Positions 2,628 through 22,911 of a stretch of DNA of 22,911 bases are shown here, one piece after another. Position 1 is the first letter of the stretch. Every line of letters starts with the position of its first letter. The notes under the pieces are model-generated. The model was given only the letters and a program-made list of their open reading frames with translations, had not been told where the DNA came from and did not search any database. The translations under genes and the position numbers were made by a program. The stretch comes from a virus (lineage: Duplodnaviria; Heunggongvirae; Uroviricota; Caudoviricetes), in the IMG/VR virus record IMGVR_UViG_2541047860_000001; one strand, given 5' to 3'.

Positions 2628-3326
2628 TTACTGCGAAAGTTTGTTAATGGAAAGGAAGCCGCCAAAGTTGCCGACGTTATTGCGAAACTTACAGCCGCTC
2701 AGGCATTTGCTGCATTTATCCTTCGTGATATCGGACGTCGGCTGGTCATATTCATCCGCGACTGCCGGACCGTGATAACCGCACTCATCACCGCGATAGG
2801 TCCAGGTGCAGGTGTTGGCCAGCATGATACGTCCCGGAAAAACAGCGCCATCCGTTTCCGTCGGCGTGGACAGTACAAAGGAGGCACTCACCGCGCTCAG
2901 TTCGCTGCACTGCTCGATGCGCCAGCGGCTGATCACCTCCTGCTCCGGATCGGCGTCACTGTTTCCGTTGACGAAGTTCACCGCATCCAGAAAACGGGCG
3001 TAAACCTTACGCCGGACCACCGTTCCGCCGACCAGACTCTGCAGATCTTCCGCCATCCCGGTGACCATACCGTACAGGTTAGAAACCGTCAGCGTGGGGC
3101 GCGTACTGGTGCCTTTGCCATTCAGTTCAAAACCACTCCCCTGAATGGGATACGGCTGATACTGTCGCCCCTGCCAGGTGACCGGCTCACCTTTTTCGTT
3201 CTGCTCATTACAGAAAAAATAACGTTCTCCACCGACCTCTGTCAGATCGATTTCCCAGAGCACCACGCTGGCCGACTGCTCCGCACGGGTGCATTCATTC
3301 AGTGTTTCCTGCCGGATATCCTGCAT
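2628..3326 (-). CDS. L: Minor tail protein L (232 aa)
   Basis: 232 aa as in lambda L; MQDIRQETLNECTRAEQSASVVLWEIDLTEVGGERYFFCNEQNEKGE...; adjoins M at 3326. Confidence 0.92.
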   Translation of the reverse strand: MQDIRQETLNECTRAEQSASVVLWEIDLTEVGGERYFFCNEQNEKGEPVTWQGRQYQPYPIQGSGFELNGKGTSTRPTLTVSNLYGMVTGMAEDLQSLVGGTVVRRKVYARFLDAVNFVNGNSDADPEQEVISRWRIEQCSELSAVSASFVLSTPTETDGAVFPGRIMLANTCTWTYRGDECGYHGPAVADEYDQPTSDITKDKCSKCLSGCKFRNNVGNFGGFLSINKLSQ

Positions 3327-3655
3327 CAGTTCACCACCTGTTCAAACTCTGCGCTGAACTCAACACGCAGCATACTGACCCGCGACGACCATTTTGCGCA
3401 GGTCACCTTTATCTGCCGCCACTCATAAGGCGGCGTCCACAGAAAGGACTTCCAGCCCCCGTGCTCAGCCAGAAACGACTCAAGCGCCGTGGCCTCCCAA
3501 CGGGGAACAGAAAGCGTCACGCTGTACGTTTTCAGGTCGGCATTCAGCCCGGCAGGCGCTCGCTGGGAATAGCCATCACCAAAGCGCACCTTTCTTACGG
3601 AAGGGGCCGAAGCCACATCCATACCGGGTTTCACTTTCCAGCGGAAGGTTTTCAT
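3326..3655 (-). CDS. M: Minor tail protein M (109 aa)
   Basis: 109 aa, MKTFRWKVKPGMDVASAPSVRKVRFGDGYSQRA..., same length and position as lambda M; overlaps the H stop. Confidence 0.92.
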   Translation of the reverse strand: MKTFRWKVKPGMDVASAPSVRKVRFGDGYSQRAPAGLNADLKTYSVTLSVPRWEATALESFLAEHGGWKSFLWTPPYEWRQIKVTCAKWSSRVSMLRVEFSAEFEQVVN

Positions 3656-6213
3656 CGTCCACCTCCGGAGAACAGACCACCATCGCGCATCTGTGTCTGA
3701 ATTTCATCACGGGCACCCTTGCGGGCCATGTCATACACTGCCTTCATCATCTGTGGACCTGGCAGACCATTCGTACCGTCGTTCTGAATCACCACGTGAT
3801 TGTTCTGATTAAAATTAATGCCTTCAGCCCGCCGCATCTGCGCCGGACTTCCGGCACCGCCCACATAACCACCTTCCGCATAGCCCCGCATCAGGCGGTA
3901 CAGGTTGCCGACACCAATCCGGCTGGTTGCCTCCTTCGTGAAGACAAATTCACCACGGTGAACAATCCCCGCTGGCTCATATTTGCCGCCGGTTCCCGTA
4001 AATCCTCCGGTTGCAAAATGGAATTTCGCCGCAGCGGCCTGAATGGCTGTACCGCCTGACGCGGATGCGCCGCCACCAACAGCCCCGCCAATGGCGCTGC
4101 CGATACTCCCGACAATCCCCACCATTGCCTGCTTAAGCAGAATTTCTGTCATCATGGACAGCACGGAACGGGTGAAGCTGCGCCAGTTCTGCTCACTGCC
4201 GGTCAGCATCGCCGCCATATTCTGTGCAATACCATCAAAGGTCTGCGTGGCTGCACTTTTTACCTGCGACATACTGTCCGTGGCGCTCTCTTCCCACTCA
4301 CTCCAGCCGGACTTCAGGCCTGCCATCCAGCTCCCGCGAAGCTGGTCTTCAGCCGCCCAGGTCTTTTTCTGCTCTGACATGACGTTATTCAGCGCCAGCG
4401 GATTATCGCCATACTGTTCCTTCAGGCGCTGTTCCGTGGCTTCCCGTTCTGCCTGCCGGTCAGTCAGCCCCCGGCTTTTCGCATCAATGGCGGCCCGTTT
4501 TGCCCGTTGCTGCTGTGCGAATTTATCCGCCTGCTGCGCCAGCGCGTTCAGGCGCTCCTGATACGTAACCTTGTCGCCAAGTGCAGCCAGCTGGCGTTTG
4601 TACTCCAGCGTCTCATCTTTATGCGTCAGCAGGGATTTCTCCTGTGCAGACAGCTGGCGACGTTGCGCCGCCTCCTCCAGTACCGCGAACTGACTCTCCG
4701 CCTTCCACAAATCCCGGCGCTGCTGGCTGATTTTCTCATTCGCTCCGGCATGCTTCTCCAGCGTCCGGAGTTCTGCCTGAAGCGTCAGCAGGGCAGCATG
4801 AGCACTGTCTTCCTGACGATCGCCCGCAGACACCTTCACGCCGGACTGTTTCGGCTTTTTCAGCGTCGCTTCATAATCCTTTTTCGCCGCCGCCATCAGC
4901 GTGTTGTAATCCGCCTGCAGGATTTTCCCGTCTTTCAGTGCCTTGTTCAGTTCTTCCTGACGGGCGGTATATTTCTCCAGCGGCGTCTGCAGCCGTTCGT
5001 AAGCCTTCTGCGCCTCTTCGGTATATTTCAGCCGTGACGCTTCGGTATCGCTCTGCTGCTGCGCATTTTTGTCCTGTTGAGTCTGCTGCTCAGCCTTCTT
5101 TCGGGCGGCTTCAAGCGCAAGACGGGCCTTTTCACGATCATCCCAGTAACGCGCCCGCGCTTCATCGTTAACAAAATAATCATCCTTGCGCAGATTCCAG
5201 ATGTCGTCTGCTTTCTTAAACGCAGCCTCTGCCTTAATCAGCATCTCCTGCGCGGTATCAGGACGACCAATATCCAGCACCGCATCCCACATGGATTTGA
5301 ATGCCCGCGCTGTCCTGTCTGCCCAGGTCTCCAGCGTGCCCATGTTCTCTTTCAGCCGGCGGGTCTGGTCATCAAACCCTTTCGTTGCGGCCTCGTTCGC
5401 CGCCTGCAATGCCCCGGCCTCATCGCCGGAACGCTGCAACTGAGCAACATACGCAATCTGCTCCGCCGTCACGTTATGGAACTGGCGTGCCATCGCTGTC
5501 AGCCCTGACGTCGGGTCTGTGGTCAGCTTCCCGAAGGCTTCAGCGACCTTGTCCATCTCCACGCCGGATGCAGAGGAGAAACGCGCCACACTCTGGCTGA
5601 TGGACGCAATCTGAGCCTCACCGCTTACCCCCGCCTTAACCAGTGCGCTGAGTGACTCGCTGGTCTGGTTAAACGTCAGCCCTGCCGCCTGCCCGGCTCT
5701 GGACAGGACCAGCATACGATCTGCCGTCAGTCCCGCCTGATTGCCGGAAAGGACCAGCGTTTTGTTGAAATCGGACAGGGTTGAGTTGCCCTGATACCAG
5801 GCATACGCCAGCGCACCGGTCGCCACCGCCAGCGAGGTGGCCCCCACCATCGGCAGGGTGATCGCACCGGCAAGCCCCCTGAACATGGGGATCATCCCGC
5901 CGAAGGAGTCCTTAACCTGACCACCCTGTTGCAGCAGGATCAGCCACGGACTTTGCCCGCCTGCAAGCTGCGTGGCCACGTCGGTGAACTGTGCAGGCAG
6001 CATACGCATGGCGGTTTTATACTGCCCGACGGAAATCCCCGCTTTCTGTGCAGCCAGCGCCTGTCGGCTCAGCGACTGTTCAACGACTGCCGCTGTTTTT
6101 TTCGCATCACTTTCCGTACCGGAAAAATGACGCCTGACTCTGGCCATCTGCTCGTCAAATCTGGCCGCATCCAGACTCAAATCAACGACCAGATCGCCTA
6201 CCGGTTCAGCCAT
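3652..6213 (-). CDS. H: Tail tape measure protein H (853 aa)
   Basis: 853 aa, identical in length to lambda H; coiled-coil-rich centre (ERLNALAQQADKFAQQQRAKRAA...) and Gly-rich C-terminal region. Confidence 0.93.
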   Translation of the reverse strand: MAEPVGDLVVDLSLDAARFDEQMARVRRHFSGTESDAKKTAAVVEQSLSRQALAAQKAGISVGQYKTAMRMLPAQFTDVATQLAGGQSPWLILLQQGGQVKDSFGGMIPMFRGLAGAITLPMVGATSLAVATGALAYAWYQGNSTLSDFNKTLVLSGNQAGLTADRMLVLSRAGQAAGLTFNQTSESLSALVKAGVSGEAQIASISQSVARFSSASGVEMDKVAEAFGKLTTDPTSGLTAMARQFHNVTAEQIAYVAQLQRSGDEAGALQAANEAATKGFDDQTRRLKENMGTLETWADRTARAFKSMWDAVLDIGRPDTAQEMLIKAEAAFKKADDIWNLRKDDYFVNDEARARYWDDREKARLALEAARKKAEQQTQQDKNAQQQSDTEASRLKYTEEAQKAYERLQTPLEKYTARQEELNKALKDGKILQADYNTLMAAAKKDYEATLKKPKQSGVKVSAGDRQEDSAHAALLTLQAELRTLEKHAGANEKISQQRRDLWKAESQFAVLEEAAQRRQLSAQEKSLLTHKDETLEYKRQLAALGDKVTYQERLNALAQQADKFAQQQRAKRAAIDAKSRGLTDRQAEREATEQRLKEQYGDNPLALNNVMSEQKKTWAAEDQLRGSWMAGLKSGWSEWEESATDSMSQVKSAATQTFDGIAQNMAAMLTGSEQNWRSFTRSVLSMMTEILLKQAMVGIVGSIGSAIGGAVGGGASASGGTAIQAAAAKFHFATGGFTGTGGKYEPAGIVHRGEFVFTKEATSRIGVGNLYRLMRGYAEGGYVGGAGSPAQMRRAEGINFNQNNHVVIQNDGTNGLPGPQMMKAVYDMARKGARDEIQTQMRDGGLFSGGGR

Positions 6214-6640
6214 ACCGGACTCCTCCTGCGATCCCTTCTGATACTGTCATCAGCATTACGTCATCCTCCGTCATGTCCGCCACATCCGGGGAAGCGGGGA
6301 TAACTTCATTCCCGTCCGGGCCAAAACGAACGCCTCCGGCAAGCCCTGCCGCTTTCTGCATCAGCACATCATCTTCAGGCTCTTCGTCAGCCTCGCGCCG
6401 GTTCAGCAGACTGAAATCCAGCGGATGCATCTCCGGATCGCTGAAAAACAGGCTGAGCACGGTGTACGTCAGCCCGGAAAAGTGCATATCCAGCAGAACA
6501 TCATGAAAATAATGGGTACTGTAAAAGCGGTGCCAGTCGGCATACTCCGTGGATGACATCCCGGCAAGCATGGCGCGCCAGTCGGGTCGCCCCATCTCAC
6601 GCGCCAGTTTCAGGGCAAAACTCAGCTCACCGTCGAACAC
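6206..6640 (-). CDS. T: T reading frame of the tail assembly chaperone; expressed as the G-T fusion by -1 programmed frameshift, not from its own start
   Basis: Seen: 144-codon frame overlapping the 3' end of G, with the slippery heptamer GGGAAAG at the junction. Established: lambda gpG/gpGT frameshift. Confidence 0.85.
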   Translation of the reverse strand: MFDGELSFALKLAREMGRPDWRAMLAGMSSTEYADWHRFYSTHYFHDVLLDMHFSGLTYTVLSLFFSDPEMHPLDFSLLNRREADEEPEDDVLMQKAAGLAGGVRFGPDGNEVIPASPDVADMTEDDVMLMTVSEGIAGGVRYG

Positions 6641-7044
6641 TTTCCCGCAGAAACAGGCTCTGCAGGCCCGGCGTCCTCTGCCTGTTCAGGAGCATCATTC
6701 ACCACAAACTCATACATACCGGACAGCCGGTACACCACGTTTTCAGCATGAGAAATTGCCTCTGTGGGCCAGGTGGTAAGCACTTCCTGCTCAATCTGTT
6801 TAACGGCTTCATTCATGGAAGGCAGCTTTGTCTTCTTCGGATGGTTATGCCACAGGGACATCGCCACCAGAAACGCGCCGGTTCTGATGGCGTCTTCCAC
6901 AGTAAACTTCCGGTTGCTGTCTGACTCCGCCTGTTCTGCCTGCCGTTTCATCAGGTCGAGATGCTCAATACGCTGCAGGGCTGACAGTTCAGAAAGCGTG
7001 ACGGTCACACCGTTATGTTCAAATGATTCGGTTTTCAGGAACAT
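6622..7044 (-). CDS. G: Tail assembly chaperone G (140 aa)
   Basis: 140 aa, MFLKTESFEHNGVTVTLSELSALQRIEHL..., matches lambda G. Confidence 0.92.
   Translation of the reverse strand: MFLKTESFEHNGVTVTLSELSALQRIEHLDLMKRQAEQAESDSNRKFTVEDAIRTGAFLVAMSLWHNHPKKTKLPSMNEAVKQIEQEVLTTWPTEAISHAENVVYRLSGMYEFVVNDAPEQAEDAGPAEPVSAGKCSTVS
6639..6645 (-). promoter_or_regulatory. -1 programmed ribosomal frameshift slippery site G GGA AAG (G to G-T)
   Basis: Seen: minus-strand GGGAAAG (plus-strand ctttccc) 5-6 codons before the G stop, exactly where the T frame opens. Confidence 0.8.
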
Positions 7045-7059
7045 CGCTGACTCTCCGGA

Positions 7060-7800
7060 TTAACTGGCGGTGACGTTGATTTCTGCAACCGCAGCAAACT
7101 CACCATTACCAGATACGACCGGAATGTTGACCTTGCCTGCAGCAACACCTTTCACGGTGATGGTCATACCACTGACCGACACGGTGGCTTTTGTTTTATC
7201 CGCAGACACCGCACGGAAGCTCTTGTCGGTTGCGCCATCCGGCTGGAATGCCACGGTCAGCGTGGTGCTCTGCCCTTTCACTACGGAAGCACTGGCGGGT
7301 GTCACCGTCATGCCGGTCGTCGCCGTCACCGTGCTGCGATCTTCTGCCATCGACGGACGTCCCACATTGGTGACCTTCACCGTGCGGGTAATCACTTCCT
7401 TCGCCGTCACCGCCTTACCGATACTGCTGACCCAGCCACGGAACACATCGACCGTGCCGTTCGGGAAGCGGATTTTATAGGCACGGGTATCACCTTCATT
7501 AAACCACGCCAGCAGCGCCTGCTGCCCCTGCTCTCCGGGCATCCACGCCAGCGTGAAGCTGGTATCTCCGGCAGATTTCTGCCCCTGTCCGGTCGCGGTC
7601 CAGTCCGCATCTTCATCATCGAGATAACTGTCGTCATAGGACTCAGCGGTCAGTTCGCCGGGCGTCAGGTCTTTAACCTTTGCCAGACGCGACCAGTCAT
7701 TGTCTGAAAGCGGGTTTGCATAAGGGTCGCCGCTCCCGTTATAAACCCACAGTGTGGTCCCGGCCCCTTTCACCGGTGCCAGAGGATTTGGTGTTGGCAT
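7060..7800 (-). CDS. V: Major tail tube protein V with C-terminal Ig-like domain (246 aa from [16 protein letters not shown])
   Basis: ORF track frame; internal ATG at 7800 gives the lambda gpV length. The C-terminal third ([25 protein letters not shown]...[25 protein letters not shown]) has Big_2-like character. Confidence 0.9.
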
Positions 7801-18446: not shown

Positions 18447-18652
18447 TTCATTTTCACTTTTTTAAATCCAACGACAGACGGCTGGCATTTAAGTATTGTG
18501 AAATATTATCAAATGTAATCATCATTGATTTACAAAAGATACATTTTGCCCCGAAAGGATTCATGTCAGAAACATCAAAAGATGATGTTCTATACTGGGA
18601 ACCATGACAACACGGGCATCTAAAGTGAATATGGTTTGTAATATTGTCTACC

Positions 18653-18865
18653 TCAAAGCGCCACTACATGAACAGCGGCAGGACCTTTAGGTCCGTTCTC
18701 AATACCAAATTCAACTTCCTGATTCTCAGTTAATGTTTTGAAATCGTTGCTCTGAATTGCTGAGAAATGGACAAACACATCTTTGCTGCCATCTTTCGGC
18801 GTGATGAAACCAAAACCTTTTTCAGGGTTAAACCATTTCACTAAACCAGTCATTTTGTTAGACAT
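18653..18865 (-). CDS. cspI: Cold-shock protein, CspA family (70 aa), CspI
   Basis: Seen: [70 protein letters not shown]; RNP1-like KGFGFI and RNP2-like VFVHF motifs; matches remembered CspI. Confidence 0.9.
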
Positions 18866-19228
18866 AATTATTACCTTTTGAAGAAATTAGCCCTTGGGCA
18901 GAATGGTCCGAAAAAAAATATCAGAGAGAAAAACCAACAAGGAAATCTCAAGAGGTACAAATAATAAAATTATAACAATGACTGCTTCAGATAAATTTGT
19001 AACAAACCAGAACACCATTAACGCATGATTAACCACCCATAGCAAGGATTACTTTTGTAAAGAAAAACACAGCAATGAAAGAATAGCTTTATTTATTAAT
19101 AATAACGTGTCATTCTGATTAAGACCTTTTATCTTACCCTTAAGATTTCAGGAATTTTGGCTCATGGAAGAGTCCTTTTTATTTAAATTTTACATTCCGC
19201 GATGTAAATGTTCCGATTTAATATTACC

Positions 19229-21003: not shown

Positions 21004-21174
21004 ATGTCAGAACGTAAAAACTCAAAATCACGCCGTAATTATCTCGTTAAATGTTCCTGCCCAAACTGCACCCAAGAGTCAGAACACAGTTTTTCAAGAG
21101 TACAAAAAGGTGCCCTTTTGATCTGCCCTCATTGCAACAAAGTATTCCAGACAAATCTTAAAGCTGTAGCCTGA
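21004..21174 (+). CDS. Small zinc-ribbon protein (56 aa, two CxxC pairs), possibly YnfU-like
   Basis: Seen: AGGAAA 8 nt before the ATG at 21004; MSERKNSKSRRNYLVKCSCPNCTQESEHSFSRVQKGALLICPHCNKVFQTNLKAVA with CPNC...CPHC. Resemblance to K-12 YnfU is from memory and unverified. Confidence 0.6.
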   Translation: MSERKNSKSRRNYLVKCSCPNCTQESEHSFSRVQKGALLICPHCNKVFQTNLKAVA

Positions 21175-21256: not shown

Positions 21257-21537
21257 GAGATTGTGGTGCTTTTTGTGGGAGTCATCCACTTACGCACTTT
21301 GTTTTGCCATGCCAGCAGTTAGCTTCTGCTGTAAAACTATTCATGCAGCAAACCTGCACTTCACCACAATGGTTAGCATACTTTTCCTGATTAAGATTTT
21401 GCCAAATATGCTAGCCATTGTTTCATGTATTGGACCTCCTTACTTTTTATTAAAGAGATCCAATATTCACTACTCTGTCCGTATCTCTACTCAGGCATCA
21501 GCCTTCTTCGTTATCGTATACAGACGAGCGATGAATT

Positions 21538-21753
21538 TTAATCAGTAATGATGACATTTGCTGCTGCAGGACCTTTAGCACCACTCTCTATAGAGAAGGT
21601 AACCTTTTGACCTTCAAATAAGGTTCGATAATTATCATTCTGAATCGCAGAAAAATGCACAAACACATCTTTACTACCATCAACAGGAGAAATAAAGCCG
21701 AAACCTTTATCAGCGTTAAACCATTTTACTAAACCAGTCATTTTATTTGACAT
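21538..21753 (-). CDS. cspB: Cold-shock protein, CspA family (71 aa), CspB
   Basis: Seen: [71 protein letters not shown]; matches remembered CspB. Confidence 0.9.
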
Positions 21754-21960
21754 TCTACATTCCTTAACTTGAGCCTTTCGGCATAAATGGTTTGCATAAC
21801 AGAAACGACTTCGTACTTAATTGGAGAGACTCAAAGAAGGAATAAGTGAATAACACCTGAAATGAGAACTGCTTTAGTAAACTACTTCGTATATCGTCTG
21901 TTCTTCAAACCGACGCAATCATTAACGCATAGTTGAACATATGAAGCAATGTTTATTTTA
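21754..21960 (-). promoter_or_regulatory. cspB promoter and long 5' UTR with cold-box-like element (minus-strand CGGTTTGAAGAACAGACGA at 21894-21912)
   Basis: Seen: about 160-nt leader before cspB ending in the SD AAGGAATG; the motif resembles the cspA cold box (CGGTTTGACGTACAGAC); -35 TTGCTT / -10 GTTAAT candidates upstream. Established: cspA-type genes have long cold-box leaders. Confidence 0.55.
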
Positions 21961-22053
21961 GACATCCAGCCATCTTCAACCCCATCAAAAAACTATAGCT
22001 TTCTTCAGGAACGTGTGTATAGTGCGCCAAGTTATCAGTATTAAGGAATTTTT

Positions 22054-22266
22054 TTGTCCCGTAAAATGACAGGAATTGTCAAAACCTTTGACGGCAAAAG
22101 CGGCAAGGGTCTTATCACCCCATCCGATGGTCGTATCGATGTCCAGCTTCATGTTTCAGCGCTCAATCTCCGCGATGCAGAAGAAATTACCACCGGATTA
22201 CGCGTGGAATTTTGCCGGATAAATGGTCTGCGTGGCCCTTCAGCTGCCAATGTTTACCTTTCATGA
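22054..22266 (+). CDS. cspF: CspA-family paralogue of the CspF/CspH subgroup (70 aa)
   Basis: Seen: [70 protein letters not shown]; diverges from canonical RNP motifs as CspF/H do; divergent from cspB as in K-12 Qin. Confidence 0.85.
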
Positions 22267-22320
22267 GCTATATTAAAGCTTTAATTTCAGGCCCCATCGG
22301 ATCACACATGGAGAGTTTTT

Positions 22321-22410
22321 ATGAATAACCCCGTCTGTCTTGATGACTGGTTGATTGGCTTTAAAAGCTTATGCTGTACTTTGGCCGTAATAGCTCTGCT
22401 AATAATATAA
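22321..22410 (+). CDS. Candidate small hydrophobic peptide (29 aa, [29 protein letters not shown])
   Basis: Seen: GGAGAG 6 nt before the ATG; C-terminal hydrophobic stretch long enough for a TM helix; a terminator follows at 22560-22595. Expression is unverified. Confidence 0.4.
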
Positions 22411-22556
22411 TAAGCAGACTCATTGTGTTTAGGGACATTGTACTGGAAGAAAACATTTTAAACATCAGGCAAATAACCAAGTCACCAGCTAAATAATAAG
22501 TTAACAGACATGAGTCCCGGGATGAGATTCAACATTACCATTGCCCCATTTAAAGC

Positions 22557-22595
22557 ACAAAACCCGCTCATCAGCGGGTTTTCTACTTTTTCTTA
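22557..22595 (+). terminator. Intrinsic terminator (AAACCCGCU-CAUC-AGCGGGUUU followed by UUCUACUUUUUCUU); a hairpin with a weaker U-tract also forms on the minus strand
   Basis: Seen: 9-bp stem at 22560-22581 and a T-rich tract 22582-22595. Confidence 0.65.
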
Positions 22596-22627
22596 ACGTC
22601 GGGTATACAAAGCCCATCGTTGAAAAA

Positions 22628-22656
22628 ATTTTATCCATATTTTTTGAAAAATGCAA
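22628..22656 (-). promoter_or_regulatory. Candidate sigma70 promoter on the minus strand (-35 TTGCAT, 17-bp spacer, -10 TAAAAT) pointing at the hairpin and the lysis genes; possible late promoter (pR'-like)
   Basis: Seen: hexamers at 22651-22656 and 22628-22633. Inference: its position upstream of the lysis module fits a Q-dependent late promoter with a short terminated leader. Confidence 0.4.
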
Positions 22657-22700
22657 ACATCATGTCGCCATCTTCAGCAAAAATCATTTATCTCGTCACC

Positions 22701-22911
22701 GGTGATGCTGCCAACTTACTGATTTAGTGTATGATGGTGTTTTTGAGGTGCTCCAGTGGCTTCTGTTTCTATCAGCTGTCCCTCCTGTTCAGCTACTGAC
22801 GGGGTGGTGCGTAACGGCAAAAGCACCGCCGGACATCAGCGCTATCTCTGCTCTCACTGCCGTAAAACATGGCAACTGCAGTTCACTTACACCGCTTCTC
22901 AACCCGGTACG
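22701..22911 (+). mobile_element. IS1 insertion sequence, left end (IRL from 22701), continuing beyond the window
   Basis: Seen: GGTGATGCTGCCAACTTACTGATTTAGTGTATGATGGTGTTTTTGAGGTGCTCCAGTGGCTTCTGTTTC is the IS1 left terminus as I recall it. Confidence 0.9.
22756..22911 (+). CDS. insA: IS1 InsA (transposition repressor), 5' part; GTG start
   Basis: Seen: GTG at 22756 then [51 protein letters not shown], a zinc-finger N-terminus identical to IS1 InsA. Confidence 0.9.

Follow-up and report, generated by a model that had tools for sequence, protein, structure and literature searches.

Can a very short reading frame with a strong Shine-Dalgarno (SD) sequence, situated just downstream of cspF in phage DNA, be taken for a gene, and if it is one, what might its hydrophobic product do in the cell that carries the phage? 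We considered this question for a single window, a 22,911-nucleotide stretch of viral DNA (IMG/VR record IMGVR_UViG_2541047860_000001), in which a preliminary description made from the sequence alone had noted such a frame. The gene proves to be one that is already known. The DNA around it suggests how a small accessory unit of a prophage may be organized with respect to the late transcription of its phage, and the peptide itself can be weighed as a membrane protein, as a young and weakly constrained product, and as a toxin.

Identity and expression of the reading frame

The frame occupies 22321..22410 on the plus strand and consists of an ATG start codon, 29 codons in all, and a TAA stop codon at 22408-22410. 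Its start at 22321, its length, and its location 3′ of cspF behind a GGAGAG sequence, all features of the preliminary description, were confirmed in the window sequence and in the list of its open reading frames (ORFs). The spacer between GGAGAG (22310-22315) and the ATG had been given as 6 nt and is in fact 5 nt long (TTTTT, 22316-22320). The window contains 10 ATG-initiated ORFs that are 20-50 aa long and preceded, at a distance of 4-9 nt, by an SD core, while shuffled sequences contain 13 ± 3; the combination of ORF and SD by itself is at chance level, and sequence alone is insufficient to establish a gene. We accept ynfS as real because it is identical to an annotated and experimentally detected protein, not because of this pattern.

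The product of 22321..22410 matches E. coli K-12 YnfS (b4750) at 29 of 29 residues, the exact-sequence look-up returning ‘Protein YnfS’ (YNFS_ECOLI) in UniProt, and the RefSeq record NC_000913.3 carries a 90-nt CDS, ynfS (b4750, ‘protein YnfS’), at the homologous position (1642122..1642211). The peptide is also matched from end to end by the Pfam family PF23697, ‘YnfS’ (80.9 bits, above the cut-off of 27; E 4.7e-23), residues 1-29 aligning with all 29 positions of the profile. Between positions 22040 and 22700 the DNA of the window is 100% identical to that of E. coli K-12 MG1655, where the RefSeq annotation shows ynfS flanked by cspF and the Q-type antiterminator gene ydfT/quuQ in the cryptic prophage Qin. 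The frame at 22321..22410 is ynfS, a gene of 29 codons that belongs to the Qin-type lambdoid prophages of Escherichia and Shigella.

Expression of this gene has been documented in several ways. Immunoblotting detected YnfS carrying a chromosomal SPA tag (VanOrsdel 2018, PMC6001520, Table 1), and the sequence, coordinates and neighbours (cspF and ydfT) listed in the same table are those found here. The tetracycline ribosome-profiling screen was also positive for ynfS (VanOrsdel 2018, PMC6001520), and retapamulin and Onc112 gave ribosome peaks at its start codon that are indicative of strong initiation (Weaver 2019). In addition, a ynfS transcript has been detected on tiling arrays. The frame had been put forward as a candidate small membrane peptide, with a failure to detect translation named among the results that would count against it; the published immunoblot and ribosome profiling answer this point, since translation is seen, and the SPA tagging and the start-codon profiling agree with each other on it. 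As a gene that is named, annotated in a reference genome, curated in Pfam and known from published work to be translated, ynfS was correctly found and is not new. It can be considered a positive control, a genuine small gene that was recognized from raw sequence only. Our search of the literature on ynfS, b4750 and small-protein toxicity screens found no report of a function, localization or partner; ynfS was still among the uncharacterized Qin genes in a review of the E. coli y-ome from 2024, and YnfS is not among the entries of the Pro-SMP finder supplement. The gene ynfQ is a different Qin gene, which encodes a protein of 37 aa (VanOrsdel 2018, PMC6001520).

Organization of the cspF-ynfS unit

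The gene upstream in the presumed cspF-ynfS transcription unit is cspF (22054..22266, plus strand; 70 aa), which appears in the ORF list and is annotated at the matching positions in RefSeq. A spacer of 54 nt (22267..22320) separates it from ynfS and contains the GGAGAG sequence and the TTTTT that follows it. In 109 related loci, drawn from viral and genome collections, cspF lies directly upstream of ynfS without exception, the distance from the cspF stop codon to ynfS is 54 nt in every case, and GGAGAG is unchanged in all 109. Because a scan of 22267..22320 for promoters and terminators found no promoter-like or terminator-like site between the two genes, co-transcription is the simplest reading of their arrangement, and cspF and ynfS are most likely co-transcribed. 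No candidate passed the promoter scan upstream of cspF. The ynfS SD sequence is unpaired in the centroid fold, and in the minimum free energy fold it is part only of a weak 6-bp hairpin of A-U and G-U pairs.

The ynfS stop codon is followed by a 3′ untranslated stretch of 148 nt (22411..22558, plus strand), which extends to the terminator described below; no other part of the locus has diverged as far. A comparison of this 3′ UTR and its antisense strand with Rfam gave nothing near threshold, the best match being isrK (16.6 bits, compared with a threshold of 50), over the terminator.

Two further observations concern small genes and leaders elsewhere in this region. An exact copy of YnfU, a 56-aa zinc-knuckle small protein whose gene is a recently recognized member of Qin, is encoded at 21004-21174 (plus strand), between the holin gene and cspB. 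The cspA thermoregulator of Rfam was matched at full length in two places on the minus strand, over cspB and its 5′ leader (21522-21914, 158.8 bits) and at 18626-19011 (112.8 bits), probably cspI as judged by the gene order of K-12 Qin, whereas cspF gave only a faint, partial match (21985-22084, 14.1 bits), and its leader looks different.

The terminator and the phage late promoter

The first terminator 3′ of cspF is a hairpin at 22559..22582, which the terminator scan recognized on both strands as a bidirectional intrinsic terminator (core CCCGCT-loop-AGCGGG, with A4 and T4 flanks and a U-tract on each strand). An intrinsic terminator had been described as following ynfS; it does exist, but it is not adjacent to the gene, as it begins 148 nt past the stop codon. 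A terminator is found 142-149 nt after the ynfS stop codon in 104 of the 109 related loci, and its sequence is 100% conserved between alleles. The same segment, downstream of Q, is annotated in phage SfV as a ‘putative rho-independent terminator’.

On the minus strand, the hairpin is preceded by a sequence that resembles the lambda late promoter pR′ (22613..22657), in which TTTGCA and TAAAAT (22657-22628), separated by 18 nt, are followed by CAACGATGGG (22622-22613). This 10-mer is identical in lambda pR′ and stands there at the same position relative to the -10 hexamer; we take it to be the sigma70-dependent pause element of lambda. That element is the site at which Q is loaded onto RNA polymerase. 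From this arrangement, the hairpin at 22559..22582 would end the cspF-ynfS transcript on the plus strand, and on the minus strand would be the counterpart of tR′, the promoter-proximal terminator for late transcription of the phage. Q-modified transcription originating from 22613..22657 (minus strand) would pass through ynfS and cspF in the antisense direction and continue towards cspB and the lysis genes. The hairpin lies about 40 nt beyond the pR′-like promoter, where termination would yield a short RNA of the 6S type, roughly 65-70 nt in length, and the sub-threshold isrK match overlaps this region.

The Q gene itself is represented in the window only by its 3′ end, a stretch of 13 nt that comprises three codons and the stop codon of ydfT/quuQ (22688..22700, minus strand); ydfT is annotated from the equivalent of 22688, and the match to K-12 stops at 22700. 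The remainder of the window (22701..22911, plus strand) consists of an IS1 end, with the inverted repeat GGTGATGCTGCC..., and the start of insA, the InsA N-terminus being encoded at 22759-22884. This element bounds the locus and lies outside ynfS: it begins at 22701, 290 nt 3′ of ynfS and 10 nt upstream of the ydfT/quuQ stop codon, severing the last three Q codons. A search of 5,426 complete E. coli genomes did not reveal the IS1-Q junction in any of them, nor is it found in the related loci that were retrieved. While the ynfS gene is identical to that of K-12, the presence of IS1 at 22701, in the last Q codons, distinguishes this window from the K-12 locus.

Comparison with other phages shows that ynfS is an addition to a widely shared arrangement. 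The lambdoid phages SfV, mEp460, the Stx2c phages and Ayreon are homologous to the window only over 22559-22700, the segment that comprises the hairpin, pR′ and the 3′ end of Q, and the ynfS segment is present in only 5 phage records. The complete phage PhiR42_1 and K-12 agree in the layout of this region, which runs Q, terminator, ynfS, cspF, cspB, holin, lysozyme. In phage HannyBb (locus about 5100-7060), about 1.9 kb of extra DNA with many tiny hypothetical ORFs is found between ynfS and Q, compared with only about 280 nt in K-12 and PhiR42_1.

This location is that of a moron, as cspF-ynfS lies between conserved phage modules and is absent at the same site from related phages. With respect to the expression features of morons, the unit has a terminator and its expression in the K-12 lysogen is published, and the scan accepted no promoter 5′ of cspF. 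In Stx phages, stx sits in the interval between Q/tR′ and the lysis cassette. The cspF-ynfS unit resembles the morons of this interval in being situated downstream of pR′-tR′ and upstream of the holin gene, and in its expression in the lysogen. It differs from them in orientation, since it is directed against late transcription and uses the tR′ hairpin jointly with it as a bidirectional terminator; pR′ would accordingly not drive its expression, and the late transcript would oppose it.

Predicted membrane insertion of YnfS

The preliminary description had attributed to the peptide a hydrophobic C-terminal half that is long enough to span a membrane. The unbroken hydrophobic run, S16-I29, is only 14 residues long, too short to cross the bilayer alone, but the larger segment L11-I29 (19 residues, with K15 inside) has a summed insertion energy of about -1.0 kcal/mol on the Hessa scale, and known small membrane proteins give values in this range when they are scored likewise. 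A transmembrane helix formed by L11-I29 is plausible on this calculation, and the original proposal survives for this longer segment and not for the unbroken run. A lipoprotein signal was considered and was rejected by inspection of the sequence, as neither C18 nor C19 is preceded by a lipobox and a basic N-region is lacking.

In these properties YnfS resembles the small single-pass inner-membrane proteins AcrZ, YnaM/YnfQ and YldA, which are likewise below 50 aa in length, have one predicted helix of comparable energy, and come from the same tagging and profiling screens. YnfS has no sequence similarity to these proteins and differs from them in the location of its helix at the extreme C-terminus, in the presence of a lysine in the 19-residue span, and in its three cysteines. 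It is placed beside them by its predicted helix only, and its location in the membrane and any partner that it may have there are putative.

Distribution, variation and selection

The ynfS segment is present in 1,406 of 5,426 complete E. coli genomes (about 26%); about 74% are without it. A DNA scan for the degenerate motif DWxxGFKxLCC, conducted in one genome per species for 185,579 species, returned only two E. coli records and one from Shigella flexneri. As judged by these searches, ynfS is confined to Qin-like phages of Escherichia and Shigella. The K-12 cspH locus was considered as the possible site of a ynfS paralogue, and none was found 3′ of cspH; this locus is homologous to that of cspF only as far as the stop codon. 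In that locus (779-1963), a copy of IS1, IS1D, lies about 420 nt downstream of cspH, with no ynfS-like ORF in between. The proximity of IS1 to both cspF-type genes may be a coincidence or may reflect a preference of IS1 for AT-rich targets.

The cspF-ynfS unit decays by different routes in nature. In TKEC21-59 (locus 3282-4113) IS1 has inserted within the last codons of ynfS; in STEC2018-607 (locus 1299-1588) the 3′ end of cspF and all of ynfS have been deleted, the deletion ending about 45 nt short of the terminator; and in E. coli DG341-1 (locus 1288-1644) cspF contains an internal stop codon while ynfS is intact.

Such findings bear on an alternative to the membrane peptide, according to which ynfS is translated but essentially functionless, or at most very young: a lineage-restricted frame that gained a strong ribosome binding site in the 3′ region of cspF. 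The benefit of such a frame, if there is one, would come from translation itself, e.g. by keeping Rho or RNases off the 3′ region of cspF, or from hydrophobicity as such and not from a particular sequence, and the sequence of the peptide would be under little selection, if any. The confinement of the motif to three records among the representatives of 185,579 species and the lack of a paralogue downstream of cspH both favour this view, as does the dispensability of the gene, evident from its absence in most complete E. coli genomes and from the deletion, IS1 and start-loss variants. The pattern of substitution is also in its favour. Among the variable sites of ynfS, 1 is synonymous and 10 are nonsynonymous (one of them the loss of the start codon), a split that does not differ from the neutral expectation of 21.5% synonymous sites (p = 0.28), whereas cspF, in the same 111 loci, has 20 synonymous and 14 nonsynonymous sites, compared with 25% synonymous expected (p = 3.7e-5). 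The splits of the two genes differ from each other (Fisher p = 0.005). By this test purifying selection on cspF is clear and none is detectable for YnfS at the amino-acid level, although the total of 11 variable sites in ynfS gives the comparison little power. YnfS may be a young, weakly constrained prophage peptide because, unlike cspF, it exhibits no purifying selection at the amino-acid level, and a peptide-level function of YnfS is not arguable from conservation.

Other features of the same loci are less easily reconciled with a functionless frame. Between the two main alleles, the ynfS ORF is 95.6-97.8% identical, compared with 90.7-94.4% for the upstream spacer and 84.6-87.2%, with indels, for the 3′ UTR; the non-coding DNA on either side has diverged 3-6 times as much as ynfS itself (Fisher p = 0.004 and 0.053 for the difference). 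The frame, its length and the SD are retained in 114 of the 116 loci in which the ORF and flanks are readable, the exceptions being one start-codon loss and one IS1 cut. Substitutions in the hydrophobic part of the peptide are mostly conservative (A22T, V23L, I29M and L11M), and Pfam curates YnfS as a family. On balance, we consider it possible, although on the unlikely side, that ynfS is nothing more than such a young and essentially functionless frame.

The proposal that YnfS is a type I toxin

The small size and hydrophobicity of YnfS had suggested that it might resemble a type I toxin, i.e. a membrane-damaging small peptide restrained by an antisense or overlapping small RNA. At 29 aa it is short, and its hydrophobicity is similar to that of TisB, ZorO or Ibs on the same scale. 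Other toxin systems, hokD and relBE, are found nearby, and late phage transcription would be antisense to ynfS. YnfS shares with Hok/Gef, Ldr, TisB, Ibs, ShoB and ZorO the property of being a short hydrophobic peptide, and its prophage setting adjoins hokD, but it differs from them in having no antitoxin RNA, no occluded ribosome binding site and no family match, and in being made constitutively at detectable levels.

An antisense small RNA on the opposite strand, for which a search had been suggested, would be one signature of such a system, the others being a toxin mRNA that is held translationally inactive and toxicity of the product. The computational scan of that strand revealed only a weak promoter-like match opposite ynfS (22431-22402, 9 of 12 positions). 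The minus strand from 22400 to 21714 contains no terminator able to end a short antisense RNA, and the antitoxin RNAs of Rfam gave no match even at E ≤ 10. Fold z-scores were unremarkable (-1.45 for the plus strand and -1.56 for the minus strand), and the SD is not sequestered. No toxin family, including Hok/Gef, Ldr, TisB and Ibs, was matched in Pfam, NCBIfam or PADLOC, the sole Pfam match at E ≤ 10 being YnfS itself. Furthermore, tagged YnfS accumulates in ordinary LB cultures of K-12 without reported harm, ribosome density at its start codon is strong, and the literature that we searched contained no report of toxicity or membrane damage on YnfS overexpression. With no antitoxin RNA, a free SD, no toxin family and a protein that is made in normal growth, the likeness to type I toxins fares poorly, and we regard it as improbable that YnfS belongs among them. 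That ynfS is an unexpressed chance ORF, as the chance-level count of ORF and SD combinations in the window might suggest, is practically out of the question, a reading already refuted by published work in which the protein and initiating ribosomes were directly detected, and opposed by the invariant SD and the conserved frame.

A proposed role for cspF-ynfS in the lysogen

We favour the view that YnfS is a lysogen-expressed, cspF-linked and probably membrane-inserted prophage peptide, and we assign this reading a probability of roughly 0.6. We propose that cspF-ynfS is an accessory, moron-like unit that would be expressed in the lysogen, having been inserted in reverse orientation between pR′-tR′ and the lysis genes, and that it would borrow the bidirectional hairpin of tR′ to end its own transcript. 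YnfS is predicted to insert into the inner membrane by means of a single helix of about L11-I29, with K15 near the interface and a short acidic N-terminus outside of the bilayer. By analogy with other small membrane proteins, any role of YnfS would be exerted through association with a larger membrane protein.

In an intact phage, the Q-dependent late transcript that is produced upon induction would run antisense over both ynfS and cspF. A more specific proposal, to which we attach little credence, is that YnfS is a membrane peptide with a role in the lysogen, such as excluding incoming phages, modulating a membrane protein of the host or being toxic under some conditions, and that it is switched off at induction by the late transcript. 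If this were true, the antisense regulator of the unit would be the late transcript itself, which converges on it and, antiterminated by Q, passes the shared terminator, and no dedicated small RNA would be involved.
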